10,858 nt of DNA from a virus (Duplodnaviria; Heunggongvirae; Uroviricota; Caudoviricetes). The translations under genes and the position numbers were made by a program. Under the pieces are notes generated by a model. It made no database searches. It saw nothing but the letters and a program-made list of their open reading frames with translations, and had not been told where the DNA came from. The stretch lies in IMG/VR virus record IMGVR_UViG_2711768001_000007; one strand, 5' to 3'. This document shows, one piece after another, positions 1 through 10,858 of the stretch. Position 1 is the first letter of the stretch. Every line of letters starts with the position of its first letter.

Positions 1-70
1 ATGATAGTTATTTATCATCTAGTGTTCGCGGGTGTTCGTGGTAGTGTTTTGTGTGCATTCATCGCTATGA
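1..70. repeat. Left terminal direct repeat, 70 bp, identical to 10789-10858; putative att core (attL side)
   Basis: Base-by-base comparison shows 1-70 and 10789-10858 are identical. It lies directly next to the integrase and clustered short repeats. It does not look like a tRNA 3' end. Confidence 0.8.
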
Positions 71-3323: not shown

Positions 3324-3623
3324 ATGAGAACGTATTTATCTGGCTTGACTGCCAGCGGTTATGCACACCCCCAAATTATCCCCGGCGCTATTTATCTGGA
3401 TAAGAACGGTAACAGAGTAACGGTAAAAGAACTGATGTTTGACCGTGTGTATTTTATCCGTGATGGCTATTCATTTCTTAGTTCGCTGAACGTGGAGATC
3501 TTTATTTGCAGATTCCGGCGGGAAATCCCGACTTCCAGAAATAACCATGTGTCACGTGTGGATGTGGATAAAAAACTACAGGAACTGAAAAACATGATTG
3601 CCGCGTGGAGAGAGCAGAAATGA
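3324..3623 (+). CDS. Hypothetical protein (99 aa), translationally coupled to the replication gene
   Basis: ORF whose stop overlaps the rep start (ATGA at 3620-3623). No recognised motif. Confidence 0.5.
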   Translation: MRTYLSGLTASGYAHPQIIPGAIYLDKNGNRVTVKELMFDRVYFIRDGYSFLSSLNVEIFICRFRREIPTSRNNHVSRVDVDKKLQELKNMIAAWREQK

Positions 3624-5437
3624 AAAAAGCGCCAAATTTAAAACACCAGCCGCGTGACAAAATGACGGAAGTCATCATTTTTGCGGGTAGTGATGCGTGG
3701 GCACATGCGAAGCAGTGGCAGGAACAGGACGGGCGACTGGCTGGCGATAACGTGCCACCTGTCTGGCTTGGAGAGCAACAACTTGCCGAACTGGACAACC
3801 TGCAAATCGTACCGGATGGACGCTATCGCGTGCGTCTCTACCAGGCGGGGTTATTGCGTCCGGGGCTTGTTAATACCATCGGGCAGAAACTGGCAGCGGC
3901 AGGTGTCAGGGATGCTGATTATTACCCTGAAGGAATGCACAGCCAGAAACGGGAGAACTGGCGCGAATATCTGGAACGTGAGCGGGGAGAGCTGACGGAA
4001 AAGAAAAAGGTAGTTGAACTGCCTGTAAAGAAAAAAGAGCGGGTAAAAGACGATAACGCTTCATCACTGGCGCTTAACCAGATGGGAGCAAGTCAACGCG
4101 GCGAAGTTCTCCTGGCACATTATGGCGGTGAACTGGCGATTCATGCCGACTCTGACACTGTTCACCATTACAACGGCGTTGTATGGGAGCCAGTACAGGA
4201 TAAAGAATTACAGCGAGCTATGGCGCAGATTTTCATTGATGCGGAGATCAGCTATTCGCAGAACGCCATTAAATCGGCGGTCGATACCATGAAGTTAAGT
4301 TTGCCTGTAATGGGGAATACAGCCCGTAACCTGATTGGATTCAGTAACGGGGTATTTGATACCAGAACAGGTAATTTTCGGCAGCATAACAAAAACGACT
4401 GGTTGTTAATTGCCAGTGAATTACCTTTCAGCCCACCAGCAGAGGGGGAAACGCTGGCAACACATGCGCCGAATTTCTGGAAGTGGTTACGCCGTTCGGT
4501 GGCTGAGAATGACCGCAAGGCGGATCGCGTACTGGCTGCATTATTCATGGTGCTGGCGAACCGGTACGACTGGCAGTTATTCATTGAGGTAACAGGTCCA
4601 GGGGGAAGTGGTAAAAGCGTGATGGCGGAGATTTGCACCATGCTGGCGGGTAAGGCTAATACAGTATCAGCGAGCATGAAGGCGCTGGAAGATGCAAGGG
4701 AACGCGCGTTAGTGGTTGGCTTTTCGCTGATTATCATGCCGGATATGACCCGCTACGCTGGTGATGGGGCGGGAATTAAGGCTATTACAGGCGGTGACAA
4801 GGTGGCAATCGACCCAAAACATAAAGCCCCATATTCAACGCGTATCCCGGCAGTAGTGCTGGCGGTTAACAATAACGCTATGTCATTCAGTGACCGCAGT
4901 GGGGGGATCTCGCGCCGTCGGGTGATATTCAATTTTTCGGAAGTTGTACCGGAGAACGAACGCGATTCAATGCTGGCGGAAAAAATAGAAGGTGAGCTGG
5001 CGGTAGTGATTCGTCATCTGCTTACACGGTTTGCTGACCAGGACGAAGCCAGACGCCTTTTATATGAGCAGCAGAAATCAGAAGAAGCACTCGCGATAAA
5101 GCGTGAAGGTGATTCGCTGGTGGACTTCTGCGGCTATCTCATGGCGTCGGTAATGTGTGATGGCCTGTTAGTGGGTAATGCTGAAATTGTGCCATTCAGC
5201 CCGCGCAGGTATCTCTATCATGCCTATCTGGCTTATATGAAGGCACATGGGTTTGGTAAACCTGTAACACTGACGCGCTTCGGTAAAGATATGCCGGGGG
5301 CAATGGCGGAATATGGCAGGGAGTATATGAAACGGAAAACGAAGCACGGTTTGCGTTCAAACGTGACACTGACGGAGGAATCAGAAGACTGGATGCCATC
5401 ATGTGTATCGGTCACTAATGACGATAGCAAAAATTAA
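3620..5437 (+). CDS. Replication initiator: D5_N-like region plus SF3-type P-loop helicase (P4-family primase C-terminal-like)
   Basis: Walker A GPGGSGKS and Walker B-like LIIMPDM. D5_N-like segment IGFSNGVFDTRTGNFRQH...LPFSP. Start taken at ATG 3620 (GGAGAG RBS) rather than GTG 3605. Iteron array begins 14 nt after the stop. Confidence 0.85.
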   Translation: MKKAPNLKHQPRDKMTEVIIFAGSDAWAHAKQWQEQDGRLAGDNVPPVWLGEQQLAELDNLQIVPDGRYRVRLYQAGLLRPGLVNTIGQKLAAAGVRDADYYPEGMHSQKRENWREYLERERGELTEKKKVVELPVKKKERVKDDNASSLALNQMGASQRGEVLLAHYGGELAIHADSDTVHHYNGVVWEPVQDKELQRAMAQIFIDAEISYSQNAIKSAVDTMKLSLPVMGNTARNLIGFSNGVFDTRTGNFRQHNKNDWLLIASELPFSPPAEGETLATHAPNFWKWLRRSVAENDRKADRVLAALFMVLANRYDWQLFIEVTGPGGSGKSVMAEICTMLAGKANTVSASMKALEDARERALVVGFSLIIMPDMTRYAGDGAGIKAITGGDKVAIDPKHKAPYSTRIPAVVLAVNNNAMSFSDRSGGISRRRVIFNFSEVVPENERDSMLAEKIEGELAVVIRHLLTRFADQDEARRLLYEQQKSEEALAIKREGDSLVDFCGYLMASVMCDGLLVGNAEIVPFSPRRYLYHAYLAYMKAHGFGKPVTLTRFGKDMPGAMAEYGREYMKRKTKHGLRSNVTLTEESEDWMPSCVSVTNDDSKN

Positions 5438-5450
5438 ACTTATGGAATAA

Positions 5451-5673
5451 CTGTTCACCACTGTTCACCCTGTTATAAATATCTTTTATATCAGTATATT
5501 ATAGGGTGAACAGTTATTTATGAACTGTTCACCAAACTATTCACTGTTCACCTTTTTGATTGTTTATTGAGCTTCAAGGGTGAACAGTGGTGAACAGTTG
5601 GTGAATAGTTTTTGTGAAACTGTTCACCCCTTAACATTATGAATTAAAAGATAAAATATCAAAAGGTGAACAG
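5451..5673. repeat. Iteron-type replication origin: about 9-10 copies of GGTGAACAG / CTGTTCACC in both orientations within AT-rich DNA
   Basis: Copies at 5451-5459, 5461-5469, 5505-5513, 5525-5533, 5544-5552, 5579-5587, 5589-5597, 5600-5608 (degenerate), 5620-5628, 5665-5673. The core matches the TGTTCACC type I iteron of the P4 ori/crr as I recall it. Confidence 0.8.
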
Positions 5674-5724
5674 GTGAAGGGTTAAAACGCAAAAATTTTA
5701 ATTTACTGCTGTGAGATAAAGCCT

Positions 5725-5970
5725 ATGACAGCGAAGCACATAAAAAAATCACAATCGCACGCCCTTGATTTGACGGAACACTGGTTAAGGGTGTCGATAA
5801 AAATCATCGACCGCAACGCCGGGGAAGGATATGCGAAAGCACATCCCGAACTGATTAGCGCATTCATGACAACGGCAGCTGCAAACTTTGCCACGCTGAC
5901 AGAACGGGAGATTGCCGAAGCGGAACAGGTGACAACCATCAACGTTAAAACCGGAGAGCAGACAGCATGA
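5725..5970 (+). CDS. Hypothetical protein (81 aa), translationally coupled to the SSB-like gene
   Basis: ORF with ATGA overlap to the next gene (5967-5970). No recognised motif. Confidence 0.45.
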   Translation: MTAKHIKKSQSHALDLTEHWLRVSIKIIDRNAGEGYAKAHPELISAFMTTAAANFATLTEREIAEAEQVTTINVKTGEQTA

Positions 5971-6389
5971 CAGCACAGATAGCGGCTTACGGGCGGCTGG
6001 TGGCTGACCCGCAGTTAAAGACCACCAGCAAGGGTACACAAATGACGATGGCGAGTATGGCGGTCCCACTTCCGTGCAGCCAGGCAGATGACGGAACGGC
6101 GACGATGTGGTTATCCGTCCTGGCGTTTGGCAGACAGGCCGAAGCACTGGCAAAGCACCGCAAGGGTGAACTCCTGAGCGTGGCGGGTAACATGCAGGTG
6201 AGCCAGTGGACCGGACAGAACGGGGAGACGCGGCAGGGCTGGCAGGTTATCGCAGACAGCGTAATCAGTGCGAGAACGGCGCGACCGGGCGGCAAAAAAG
6301 GCCAACAGGGGCAGGCTACTGATGCACTGAGCAGAGCAAAACAACAGGCGGGAAATGATGATCCGTACGGGGATAACATACCGTTTTAA
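5967..6389 (+). CDS. ssb: Single-stranded DNA-binding protein homolog (OB fold) with C-terminal acidic ...DNIPF tip
   Basis: 140-aa product aligns by eye with E. coli SSB: LSVLAFGRQAE vs HRVVLFGKLAE, VSQWTGQNGETRQ vs RTRKWTDQSGQDR, and C-terminal DDPYGDNIPF vs DFDDDIPF. Confidence 0.75.
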   Translation: MTAQIAAYGRLVADPQLKTTSKGTQMTMASMAVPLPCSQADDGTATMWLSVLAFGRQAEALAKHRKGELLSVAGNMQVSQWTGQNGETRQGWQVIADSVISARTARPGGKKGQQGQATDALSRAKQQAGNDDPYGDNIPF

Positions 6390-6403
6390 GCAACGAGTAA
6401 CAG

Positions 6404-6428
6404 AAGCCGGAGCAATCCGGCTTTTTTA
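6404..6428 (+). terminator. Rho-independent terminator-like hairpin after the SSB-like gene
   Basis: Stem AGCCGG (6405-6410) / CCGGCT (6417-6422), 6-nt loop, then T-run 6422-6427. Confidence 0.6.
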
Positions 6429-6497
6429 TGGGTCCTCCCGGTGTAGTGACCTGCCACGGGGCGGGAGCGTCGCGGAAAAAGGCTGGTTTTTGCATTT
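6429..6497 (+). repeat. Conserved ~70-bp element, copy 1 (about 92% identical to 8964-9035)
   Basis: GGGTCCTCCCGGTG...CCACGGGGCGGGAGCG.CGCGGAAAAAGGCT.GTTTTTGCATTTTCA. Internal dyad CTCCCG/CGGGAG and GGTG/CCAC. Differences between copies cluster in the putative loop. Confidence 0.7.
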
Positions 6498-6688
6498 TCA
6501 TGGCGGCGGCAGCATGTGTAGTAATTTATTGATAATTAAAAGTTATTTCTGTTTTCACCTGTACAATATTTTTTTCTCCCTGTCATTAGACCAGTTTGCA
6601 ATTAATTGAAATATATAAATAAATCTGTTTTTCACCTGCCAGGTGGAGTTGCCTGTGTCAAAACGTGTTCAGATGGCGGGATATTTAT

Positions 6689-6813: not shown

Positions 6814-7023
6814 GTGAGTTGTATTAATGACCTGAACACGGGCGATATCAGGGGTGGTTCCGTTCATCTGGATGCGCAGACCGTTATGCGCCTTAAGCAG
6901 TACAGGATCGACCATATAAATCATCATCCTGACCAACCATTACCAGGTGTGGCGCAGATTGTCAGACATGCCGTAAACACCTGGCTTAATCAGAATGGTT
7001 TTGCATCGGTGGGGGAACAATGA
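6814..7023 (+). CDS. Hypothetical small protein (69 aa), possibly RHH-like, translationally coupled to the protease-capsid gene
   Basis: GTG start 6814 with strong RBS AAGAGGA (6800-6806). Stop overlaps capsid start (ATGA 7020-7023). RHH assignment is a guess from a beta-strand then two-helix pattern. Confidence 0.45.
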   Translation: MSCINDLNTGDIRGGSVHLDAQTVMRLKQYRIDHINHHPDQPLPGVAQIVRHAVNTWLNQNGFASVGEQ

Positions 7024-8933
7024 ATCGCTGGTACACCATTAAGGCGGCGGATGTTCGCGGAGCGGCGGATATATCTATCTATGAGGAGATTGGCGGCTTC
7101 GGTGTTACTGCAAAGCAGTTCGCGGAAGACCTGAAAGCCCTTGGCGATGTTTCACATATCAATCTGAGGATCCATTCACCAGGTGGTGATGTGTTTGAAG
7201 GCATCGCCATCTATAACCTGCTACGGAATCATCCGGCAGACATTACGGTTTATATCGATGGTGTTGCGGCTTCAATGGCTTCGGTGGTCGCAATGGCTGG
7301 CGATCGTGTTGTGATGCCGGAAAACGCCATGATGATGATACATAAGCCGTGGGGTATCTCTGGCGGAAATGCTGGTGATATGCGTGATTATGCTGATTTG
7401 CTGGATAAGGTGGAAACCGTGTTAGTCCCTGCTTATGCCAGAAAAACGGGCAAATCAGCACAGGAAATTACCGCCATGCTGGAAGATGAAACCTGGATGG
7501 ACGGGAAAGAATGCCTTAAGCACGGTTTTGCTGATGAATTGTTGCCATCCGTCAGAGCAATGGCGCGAATTGAATCGAAGCGCACAGGAGATTTTTTACA
7601 TATGCCGGAAACCATTAAAGGAATGATTACACCGCCACAGGGAGCGGCAAATATTGCTGGTAATGAACAGAAACGCATCAATGGAATAAGTGAAGTGTTT
7701 AGCCTGTTCGGCAGTCGTTACGACGGGATCAAAATGGCGTGTCTGGAAGATGCATCATGTACACCGGAAATGGCCCGTGAAAAGCTGTTGAACGAGCTGG
7801 GGCGCGAGTCCACGCCATCCAATAAAAATACCCCGGCTCATATCTATGCCGGAAACGGAAACATAACAGGTGATGCAATTCGTCAGGGGCTTTATTCCCG
7901 TCTTGGGTATGAACGGCCTGAACGAGGCAACCCTTACGCGATGATGAGTCTTTTTGAAATGGCCCAGGCATCACTGGTTGATCGTGGTATCACTGTGAGC
8001 GGTTTTATTAATCGCTCGCAGGTTGTTAATGCGGCTTTTACACACAGCAGCAGTGATTTTTCTCATATTCTGGCTGGTGGGGCTGAAAAATCTGTACTGA
8101 AAGGCTGGCAGGACAGCGGCGAAACGTTCCAGAAATGGACGCGTACCGGTTCGCTTTCAAACTTTCATGAAGCAAAGCGCGTTGGTCTGAATGGTTTTTC
8201 AAAGCTGGATAAAGTACCGGAAGGTGCGGAATATAAATACATCACCACCAGCGATAAAGGTGTACCTATTGCGCTGGCCACGTACGGGAATATATTTTCC
8301 GTTACCCGTCAGGCCATTATCAACGATGACCTGACCCAGTTAACTACAATCCCCATGGCGATGGGACGCGCAGCTGCCAGAACAGTTGGCAATCTGGTTT
8401 ATCTCCTGTTAACCAGCAACGGCAAGTTTACGGATGGTAAAGCGTTATTCCATGCCGATCATAAAAATCTTATTGCGAAGGATATGGACATGGAGGGGCT
8501 TAACGAAGCCCGTAAGCTGATGCGCCTCCAGGAAGACGCTAACGGCGATTCGCTGAATATTACCCCTGCATTTGTCCTGGTCCCCGCCGCGCTGGAGTCT
8601 GCCGCACATCGCGCCATTCTGTCATCGTCATCACTCTTTCCGGTTGATGGCGTGGGCACTATCAATCAGAACCCCGGCATCATTAACGTGGTGAAAGATA
8701 TGGCGGAGGTAATCGTTGAGCCACGTCTTGATAAAGCCAATAACAAGGAGTGGTATGTGGCAGCGGCGAAGGGTATGGACACGATAGAGGTCGCTTATCT
8801 TGATGGTATTGATACGCCATATCTTGAGGAGCAGGAGGGCTTTACTGTTGATGGCGTCGCCTGGAAGGTGCGCATAGATGCAGGTGTCGCGGCCCTCGAC
8901 TATCGCGGATTACTGAAATCGAGTGGAGCATGA
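7020..8933 (+). CDS. Fusion protein: N-terminal ClpP-family prohead protease plus C-terminal probable phage major capsid protein
   Basis: N-terminal ~190 aa align with ClpP: IHSPGGDV vs INSPGGVI, GVAASMAS vs GQAASMGA (catalytic Ser), MIHKPW vs MIHQP (catalytic His). The C-terminal ~440 aa have capsid-like character (ending ...GVAALDYRG); that part is a judgement call. Confidence 0.8.
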   Translation: MNRWYTIKAADVRGAADISIYEEIGGFGVTAKQFAEDLKALGDVSHINLRIHSPGGDVFEGIAIYNLLRNHPADITVYIDGVAASMASVVAMAGDRVVMPENAMMMIHKPWGISGGNAGDMRDYADLLDKVETVLVPAYARKTGKSAQEITAMLEDETWMDGKECLKHGFADELLPSVRAMARIESKRTGDFLHMPETIKGMITPPQGAANIAGNEQKRINGISEVFSLFGSRYDGIKMACLEDASCTPEMAREKLLNELGRESTPSNKNTPAHIYAGNGNITGDAIRQGLYSRLGYERPERGNPYAMMSLFEMAQASLVDRGITVSGFINRSQVVNAAFTHSSSDFSHILAGGAEKSVLKGWQDSGETFQKWTRTGSLSNFHEAKRVGLNGFSKLDKVPEGAEYKYITTSDKGVPIALATYGNIFSVTRQAIINDDLTQLTTIPMAMGRAAARTVGNLVYLLLTSNGKFTDGKALFHADHKNLIAKDMDMEGLNEARKLMRLQEDANGDSLNITPAFVLVPAALESAAHRAILSSSSLFPVDGVGTINQNPGIINVVKDMAEVIVEPRLDKANNKEWYVAAAKGMDTIEVAYLDGIDTPYLEEQEGFTVDGVAWKVRIDAGVAALDYRGLLKSSGA

Positions 8934-8937
8934 CAAC

Positions 8938-8963
8938 AAGGGCGGCGATAGCCGCCTTTTTTT
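8938..8963 (+). terminator. GC hairpin plus T-run after the capsid gene; terminator-like, and also contains a 9-nt match to lambda cosN
   Basis: Stem GGCGGC (8941-8946) / GCCGCC (8951-8956), loop GATA, T-run 8957-8963. GGGCGGCGA (8940-8948) matches the first 9 nt of lambda cosN GGGCGGCGACCT as I recall it. Confidence 0.5.
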
Positions 8964-9035
8964 ACGGGTCCTCCCGGTGGGGTGGTCTGCCACGGGGCGG
9001 GAGCGGCGCGGAAAAAGGCTAGTTTTTGCATTTTC
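8964..9035 (+). repeat. Conserved ~70-bp element, copy 2 (about 92% identical to 6429-6497)
   Basis: See copy 1. Same position relative to a GC hairpin plus T-run. Confidence 0.7.
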
Positions 9036-9190
9036 ATTCGTCATCATCATCTTTCTATAATGTTGAATTTTAAGTGTTTTTATTTTTGGTATGTTAATTT
9101 TGCTTATTTTGTGTTCAACATACAGCGCGTTTTTTGACCTTTTTTAAAAGATATTTGCAAGATGCATTTTTAAAACATTCTGGAGCGGGT

Positions 9191-9676
9191 ATGGATCGGG
9201 AACTGAAAAATCTGATGCTGAACATTAACCAGCTGGCGGCGATAGCGGGAATATGTCGCCAGACTGCGGCGGCAAGGCTGAAAAATATCCAGCCAGCCGG
9301 AGGACATGACAAGCTGAAACTCTATCGGGTGACTGACATTCTGACTTGTTTTCTTGATCTTCCCGTTCCGGCATCACTGGAAGAAATGGAGCCACACGAC
9401 CGTAAGGCCTGGTATCAGTCCGAACGTGAGCGCCTCAAGTTCGAACAGGAAACGGCGCAACTCATACCCGCCGATGATGTGCGAAAAGAGATGGCTATAT
9501 GGGGAGAAATCGTAAGCGAGGAACTGGAAAAACTCCCCAGTATTCTGGCACGTGATGTTGGGCTTAAACCGATGGCAGTAAACAGAGTGCAGTCAATTAT
9601 TGACGATTTGTGTAATCAGATTATCAGCCGGATGGTAAAAAATGACGTAGTGAATGAGGTCGCAAAACAGGCATGA
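9191..9676 (+). CDS. Terminase small subunit, lambda Nu1-like
   Basis: From ATG 9191 (GGAG RBS 9183-9186). NQLAAIAGICRQTAAARLKNIQPAGGHDKLKLYRVTDIL parallels lambda Nu1 KKQLADIFGASIRTIQNWQEQGMPVLRGGGKGNEVLYDSAAVI (from memory). The track ORF starts at TTG 9134, which I consider less likely. Confidence 0.7.
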   Translation: MDRELKNLMLNINQLAAIAGICRQTAAARLKNIQPAGGHDKLKLYRVTDILTCFLDLPVPASLEEMEPHDRKAWYQSERERLKFEQETAQLIPADDVRKEMAIWGEIVSEELEKLPSILARDVGLKPMAVNRVQSIIDDLCNQIISRMVKNDVVNEVAKQA

Positions 9677-10660: not shown

Positions 10661-10717
10661 TTGTTCGTGGTTGTTCGATATTGTTCGTGGAACGGTGTAG
10701 TTAATGGTGTAGTTAAT
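10661..10717. promoter_or_regulatory. Putative integrase arm-type sites at the right end: three 10-bp-phased TTGTTCG decamers (10661-10690) and tandem GGTGTAGTTAAT x2 (10694-10717)
   Basis: Mirror of the motif content at 91-164, same orientation, about 70 bp inside the right terminal repeat. Confidence 0.4.
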
Positions 10718-10788
10718 TTTACTGTTTTTGACGAGCTTATTGTTTGCAACTCAATGAAAAATAAAGGCTAATAAGCCAAATACTATAA

Positions 10789-10858
10789 ATGATAGTTATT
10801 TATCATCTAGTGTTCGCGGGTGTTCGTGGTAGTGTTTTGTGTGCATTCATCGCTATGA
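10789..10858. repeat. Right terminal direct repeat, 70 bp, identical to 1-70; putative att core (attR side)
   Basis: Exact identity to 1-70. Confidence 0.8.

Follow-up and report, generated by a model that had tools for sequence, protein, structure and literature searches.

A bacterial-type SSB and an overlapping 81-residue ORF as the last genes in the replication operon of an Escherichia coli phage satellite

The window, that is, the whole 10.8-kb stretch of DNA analysed here (10,858 nucleotides), is a complete Gram-negative PICI, an E. coli phage satellite, at the cspD/clpS site. Judging by its sequence, the element encodes a true bacterial-type SSB of its own, and the gene for it overlaps that of an 81-residue protein, ORF81; these are the final two genes of the PICI replication operon. 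The best explanation for the whole, and in our judgement probably the right one, is that an accessory SSB and a second accessory protein, ORF81, together close this operon. The pair is not new, and the SSB gene is ordinary and already annotated in public genomes, where the exact protein is named "single-stranded DNA-binding protein" and ORF81 is hypothetical (RefSeq). What is new is the neighbourhood link of the ORF81 family to genes for primases, helicases and clamps.

The features discussed below are as follows (window coordinates).

3605..5437, + strand: Pri-Rep, D5-type primase-helicase (PF08706 D5_N, PF19263 DUF5906, PF03288 Pox_D5; phrog_864 DNA primase)
5446..5683, unstranded: iteron field, AT-rich DNA flanked by about 12 GGTGAACAG copies of both orientations (repeat families D1-D4 and I1-I21)
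5725..5970, + strand: ORF81, 81 aa, ATG at 5725, TGA at 5968-5970 (phrog_1231, E 6e-49)
5967..5970, + strand: ATGA overlap, SSB start codon over the ORF81 stop, read from the sequence
5967..6272, + strand: SSB OB-fold domain, aa 1-102 (PF00436 over residues 5-99)
6273..6353, + strand: SSB linker, aa 103-129, about 27 aa, with six basic (K+R) residues and one acidic (D+E)
6354..6389, + strand: SSB tip NDDPYGDNIPF plus stop codon, conforming to the clade tip pattern, with the same IPF as in E. coli SSB
6402..6427, + strand: intrinsic terminator hairpin, stem GCCGGA/TCCGGC followed by T6, closing the replication operon

The satellite and its replication block

The original prediction had taken the SSB to be encoded by a satellite, and the gene content bears this out. 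Exact direct repeats of 70 nt at the two ends of the window (1-70 and 10789-10858) are the att duplication of the island, which makes the window a single integrated element in its full length. Immediately inward of them is a second, degenerate repeat of 60 nt, with 78% identity between its copies (105-164 and 10661-10720). Many E. coli chromosomes carry, between the genes cspD and clpS, islands 100% identical to the window. Gram-negative PICIs are defined by an integrase, a regulator, a primase-replicase with an iteron origin downstream, a capsid gene and terS (PMC6092414, PMC10085698), and the criteria we used were a size of about 10 kb, att direct repeats, these five core components and mostly one direction of transcription (PMC10085698, PMC6092414). 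All five components are present. The order of genes is a tyrosine integrase, an AlpA-type HTH regulator, YlcI/YnfO and Icd-like genes and DUF4222; then the D5_N/DUF5906 primase-helicase, the iteron field, ORF81, SSB and the intrinsic terminator; and finally a small ORF, a ClpP-protease/major-capsid fusion and a DUF1441 (TerS-like) gene. Helper-phage-dependent induction, replication and packaging have been shown for the related island EcCICFT073 (PMC6092414).

The late part of the island has features of its own. The ClpP-like prohead protease is fused to the major capsid protein in a single chain of 637 aa (7020-8933), and the DUF1441/TerS-like protein is encoded at 9134-9676; a portal and a head-tail connector are absent from the island. 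Two copies of an 80-nt direct repeat, 91% identical (6422-6501 and 8958-9037), begin, respectively, at the T-run of the terminator that follows SSB and at the terminator that follows the protease/capsid gene. Each copy contains a hairpin, CCTCCCGG...GGGCGGGAG, and both copies recur jointly in related islands with the same capsid module (L001, L003, L034, L100 and others). The repeat has no match in Rfam, and it could be a regulatory element ahead of each late module. As for structural RNA, the locus and its surroundings gave nothing in Rfam but a spurious, sub-threshold lncRNA match.

Pri-Rep, called "DNA primase family protein" by PGAP, is encoded upstream of ORF81 and SSB, probably in the same transcription unit. 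Directly 3' of its gene, the GGTGAACAG iterons are grouped as two oppositely oriented sets within 5446-5683. The origins of E. coli PICIs have been described at just this place, directly 3' of pri-rep (PMC6092414), and the iteron layout agrees with that description; by this analogy we take the field to be the predicted replication origin. On the other side, the terminator after SSB folds as RNA at -16.1 kcal/mol (z = -4.05), and an equally good fold was obtained in 0 of 200 shuffled sequences. A separate promoter for the ORF81/SSB pair was considered and set aside, as a scan for sigma-70-like promoters between the primase and ORF81 found none, although the scan was crude and the evidence from it is weak. 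The absence of a promoter before ORF81 and the presence of a terminator after SSB fit a single early-operon transcript. In one published classification, too, "Primase, SSB and DUF5906" are assigned to the "Replication" category of PICI genes, which colocalises with the origin (PMC10111431). A plasmid with just the pri-rep gene and the origin of EcCICFT073 is maintained in DH5alpha (PMC6092414), so neither ORF81 nor SSB is required for replication as such.

The SSB gene had been presented as a curiosity of one element, which it is not: it is a standard annotated PICI replication gene, found also in EcCICFT073, and of 5426 complete E. coli genomes 2839, about half, have a match to the 1.3-kb region. 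Each of the 80 loci from viral contigs has the whole block of primase, origin, ORF81 and SSB, bar two whose contig stops short of SSB. The integrases of these 80 loci are anywhere between 21 and 100% identical, and most of the loci have some other capsid/TerS module downstream. This constancy of the block amid variable integrase and packaging genes makes the ORF81/SSB pair a part of the replicon rather than variable cargo.

Allelic variation within the block is uneven. Across L002-L081, SSB falls into identity classes of about 70%, 78-80% and 94-100%, which are shuffled relative to the primase alleles (about 87% and 97-100%); ORF81, never below 91% identity, is thus the most conserved gene of the block. 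A phage origin of the pair was also considered and rejected: searches of 50,697 phage records by blastn and tblastn gave no match to ORF81, and for SSB the matches reached 32% identity at most.

The position of the pair bears on a quite different idea, namely that ORF81 and SSB are defence or counter-defence cargo, which would guard the satellite or its helper against host sensors of phage ssDNA or of SSB, or serve as a decoy. Their place between origin and packaging genes is indeed near a common site for PICI accessory genes (PMC10085698). But the pair closes the replication transcription unit and is invariant across islands, when true cargo varies, and no PADLOC model matches ORF81 or SSB at E <= 0.1, so a known defence system was discarded as a candidate. 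A defence role for the pair is unlikely, and this particular version of it we regard as very improbable.

The SSB and its C-terminal tip

The two reading frames lie exactly where they had been placed, ORF81 at 5725-5970 and SSB at 5967-6389. SSB is a 140-aa protein encoded on the + strand (ATG at 5967, TAA at 6387-6389). It scores 58.6 bits against PF00436 (gathering score 26) and 59.1 bits against TIGR00621 (cut-off 53.95), passing both thresholds, and 26 solved SSB chains in PDB match it at E <= 1e-3. Assignment of the domain to a non-SSB OB family by profile search had been named as the result that would count against the proposal; the profile searches gave SSB instead. A PriB-like or other non-SSB OB fold is ruled out by the above-cut-off SSB profiles together with the IPF tail.

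For alignment, the E. coli SSB reference was checked against PDB structure 1eqq and is identical in extent. The island protein and E. coli SSB (140 and 178 aa) share 44 identical positions. The linker, which measures about 27 aa in the former and about 56 aa in the latter, accounts for nearly all of the difference in length and is indeed shortened, as predicted. Three of the four aromatic residues that stack on ssDNA are kept (W48, F54 and W81, corresponding to W54, F60 and W88 of E. coli SSB), and the position of the fourth, W40, is non-aromatic in the island SSB. His55 of the E. coli protein, the residue mutated in the tetramer-stability allele ssb-1, is replaced by Leu.

Typical bacterial SSBs are homotetramers that bind ssDNA cooperatively; their OB domain covers the DNA strand, and their C-terminal tip is the docking site for partner proteins. 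Tips of the island clade conform to the pattern P[YFW]xD[NGDE]IPF. The prediction that the C-terminal IPF is conserved was borne out: 71 of 78 distinct loci have an intact SSB with this tip, far beyond chance, which reflects purifying selection. The remaining seven loci (about 9%) carry truncated SSB alleles, which shows that the gene can be lost. The linker contains an A6 run at approximately 6294-6299, close to a segment that encodes GGKK, and the alleles in L009, L012, L060 and L099 stop or shift frame straight after the GGKK segment by this run. Such alleles would give OB-only products devoid of the linker end and the IPF tip; they could be slippage mutations, sequencing errors or signs of decay.

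The claim that DNIPF is a variant tip holds in part. The island tip is less acidic than that of the host, but Asn at position -4 stands where the clade as a whole is variable (N, G, D or E). Much the same evidence has to be weighed for the possibility that the satellite SSB competes with host SSB by means of its altered tip and its short, basic linker, so that either host replication and repair proteins are channelled to satellite DNA, or the replication and recombination of the helper are starved or poisoned, resulting in interference. The tips, PYGDNIPF on the island and DFDDDIPF in the host, differ visibly, and the linker is half as long as that of the host, basic and not rich in Gly, Gln and Pro. 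The clade is also confined to satellites, since deposited phage SSBs are less than 33% identical to it and only nine plasmid records reach 60%; and not all EcCICFT073 genes responsible for interference with lambda were identified in the 2018 study (PMC6092414). However, the variant residue occupies a freely variable position, some members of the clade have DDIPF just as the host does, and the SSB gene belongs to the replication block, outside the variable interference and packaging genes. Interference by EcCICFT073 was, moreover, later ascribed to redirection of packaging, in a paper that does not mention ssb (PMC6739421). Competition with the host protein thus seems to us unlikely.

The island SSB is most likely an accessory of the satellite replicon, which would coat unwound DNA and dock host partners via its tip. 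We base this role on what is generally known of SSBs, on the conservation of the tip and on the position of the gene. No functional test of a PICI SSB was found in the searchable literature.

ORF81 and its relatives

SSB had been said to overlap an unassigned 81-aa ORF, and it does so by the four nucleotides ATGA at 5967-5970. This overlap is kept in 76 of 81 related loci that have both genes, despite the variable C-terminus of ORF81. The sole Shine-Dalgarno-like sequence, GGAG, precedes the start codon of SSB by 12 nt, a poor spacing, and therefore translation of SSB plausibly depends on termination of ORF81; the overlap suggests that the two are probably coupled. An ORF of 101 aa is inserted between ORF81 and SSB in L023 (6243-6548) and also in L013, where it is ATGA-coupled to ORF81, giving a three-gene coupled string; it resembles none of the other genes examined.

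ORF81 matches phrog_1231 along its full length, residues 2-80 aligning to positions 4-82 of the 83 in the profile, and so do all 39 of the diverse ORF81 relatives that were tested. Neither Pfam, NCBIfam nor PADLOC gave a match to ORF81, and the 39 relatives likewise have no match in Pfam. ORF81 has 164 close relatives, and when 1.8 billion representatives were searched with a profile, 669 remote ones came to light, 70-110 aa long and with the common core ID..FG.GYAK.HPELIAAFM.TAA.DF. The AlphaFold2 model, built from an alignment of 121 sequences, has a pLDDT of 84.7 and helices at 3-32 and 41-68, so ORF81 is predicted to be a helical hairpin, rather like a bent pin with a loose end: the conserved motif ID..(F)G.GYAK.HPELI.AFM.TAA.(N/D)F would lie at the turn, followed by a disordered tail. 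Fold searches with this model recovered generic hairpins only, and a sequence search of PDB gave a single marginal match (E 0.064).

The gene neighbourhoods of the family are more informative. Primases of the Toprim-DUF927 type are found adjacent to an ORF81 relative, or within three genes of it, in L154, L160, L082 and L162; those of L154 and L160 are Zn-ribbon/Toprim/DUF927 proteins encoded in PICI-like islands and followed by capsid and protease. DUF5906 primases accompany the relatives in L163 and L093, the former an integrase-AlpA-DUF5906 primase island in which the ORF81 relative overlaps the primase stop codon by 4 nt. Other relatives occur near RepB_primase and a D5_N helicase (L166), a Prim-Pol (L168), a DnaG-type zinc-ribbon primase (L170) and a phage beta-clamp (L169). 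Altogether, a gene for a primase, helicase or clamp is nearby in six or seven of ten sampled remote relatives, which had been picked by length of contig and not at random, and absent from the remaining three or four contexts (L161, L165 and L167). The link of the family to replication genes is thus a tendency seen in a small sample, a lead rather than a rule.

L170, a small integrase-bearing island from a metagenome, has two ORF81-family paralogues in tandem, which overlap each other (4717-5004 and 5001-5306), directly upstream of the DnaG-type primase, an arrangement which hints that the hairpin proteins may act as dimers.

None of about 18 contexts of remote phrog_1231 relatives has an SSB nearby. 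A cryptic SSB downstream of these relatives was looked for and rejected, as the genes coupled to them on the downstream side encode proteins related neither to each other nor to SSB. These observations bear on the idea that ORF81 is a dedicated chaperone, regulator or adaptor of SSB, the two making up a two-component unit for handling ssDNA. The conservation of the ATGA coupling in 76 of 81 loci speaks for such a unit, and ORF81 is better conserved than its neighbour, with 88% identity to the EcCICFT073 protein against 71% for SSB. Against it stand the relatives just described, which have no SSB beside them and are coupled to unrelated genes, or, in L163, to a primase instead of SSB; and where the 101-aa gene is inserted (L013, L023), it is this gene that is ATGA-coupled to ORF81. 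On balance a dedicated SSB partner is quite improbable. The prediction that had coupled ORF81 to SSB was right about the overlap, while ORF81 turns out not to be SSB-specific: its relatives accompany primases in modules that have no SSB at all.

Relatives beside varied primases, and none beside an SSB, make ORF81 look like an accessory of replication modules, more precisely, to go by its neighbours, a small accessory protein of mobile-element primase-helicase modules. If we had to guess at its molecular partner, we would name the primase-helicase or origin complex before SSB.

Taken together, the accessory roles preferred here for both proteins suggest the following course of events. Once a helper phage activates the island, Pri-Rep would open the origin, and the island SSB would coat the strands that Pri-Rep unwinds at the iterons. 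The SSB tip may then dock those host proteins that interact with SSB, for instance chi, a subunit of the Pol III clamp loader. ORF81 would be made from the same message just ahead of SSB, whose translation is probably coupled to ORF81 termination. The result would be extra SSB capacity for a burst of satellite replication, helpful but not essential.

A bolder version of this scheme treats ORF81 as a widespread accessory subunit of mobile-element replication initiation, which would work with unrelated self-loading primase-helicases; it might remodel the origin, help to assemble the helicase or connect the module to parts of the host replisome. In enterobacterial PICIs it would be coupled stoichiometrically to a satellite-specific SSB, the modified tip and linker of which would tune the recruitment of host proteins. 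We offer it tentatively, as a possibility worth keeping in mind more than as an expectation.

As it stands, the SSB finding carries little weight, since it confirms a routine annotation in a very common E. coli satellite. What retains interest is that a 10-kb parasite which borrows nearly everything has an SSB of its own, with a conserved, less acidic tip, and that the better-conserved ORF81 belongs to a family, phrog_1231, which recurs beside the primases of many unrelated mobile elements. Answers as to what SSB and ORF81 do would fill a gap in our understanding of how satellite replicons assemble on host machinery.

Comparison with known systems

The closest known system is EcCICFT073 of E. 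coli CFT073, in which the same pair (C_RS06990/C_RS06995) follows primase and origin with the same 4-nt overlap. Its ORF is 85 aa long and 88% identical to ORF81; its SSB has 136 aa, 71% identity and the tip PYGDDIPF. The two islands share the order of integrase, AlpA-type regulator, YlcI/YnfO, Icd-like gene, DUF4222 and primase. They differ in the site of integration, next to roxA/phoQ in the case of EcCICFT073 and between cspD and clpS here, and in the downstream genes, which are PerC, a lambda-type capsid and a decoration protein in EcCICFT073, and the ClpP-protease/capsid fusion and the DUF1441 TerS-like gene in the present element. Comparison of these late genes indicates that the packaging module has been swapped between islands with a common replication block.

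E. coli SSB (P0AGE0; PDB 1eqq) has the same architecture as the island protein, a PF00436 OB fold, a disordered linker and a tip ending in D-x-IPF. The linkers are, however, unlike: Gly/Gln/Pro-rich and about 56 aa long in the host, basic and about 27 aa long on the island, and the island tip PYGDNIPF has fewer acidic residues than DFDDDIPF. The host ssb gene is essential, whereas the PICI SSB is dispensable for replication of a pri-ori plasmid (PMC6092414).

The phrog_1231 family, which ORF81 matches end to end, is an uncharacterised family of phages and prophages, with neither a Pfam entry nor a solved structure, and its link to replication modules comes from gene neighbourhoods.

SSBs of conjugative plasmids and temperate phages (phrog_44) are likewise extra, element-encoded copies of the bacterial type with an IPF-type tail. 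In sequence they stand well apart from the island SSB, deposited phage proteins being below 33% identity and those of plasmids almost all below 60%. Plasmid SSB genes lie in the leading region, and those of phages in the recombination module; the gene described here is placed instead in the primase-origin replicon of a satellite.
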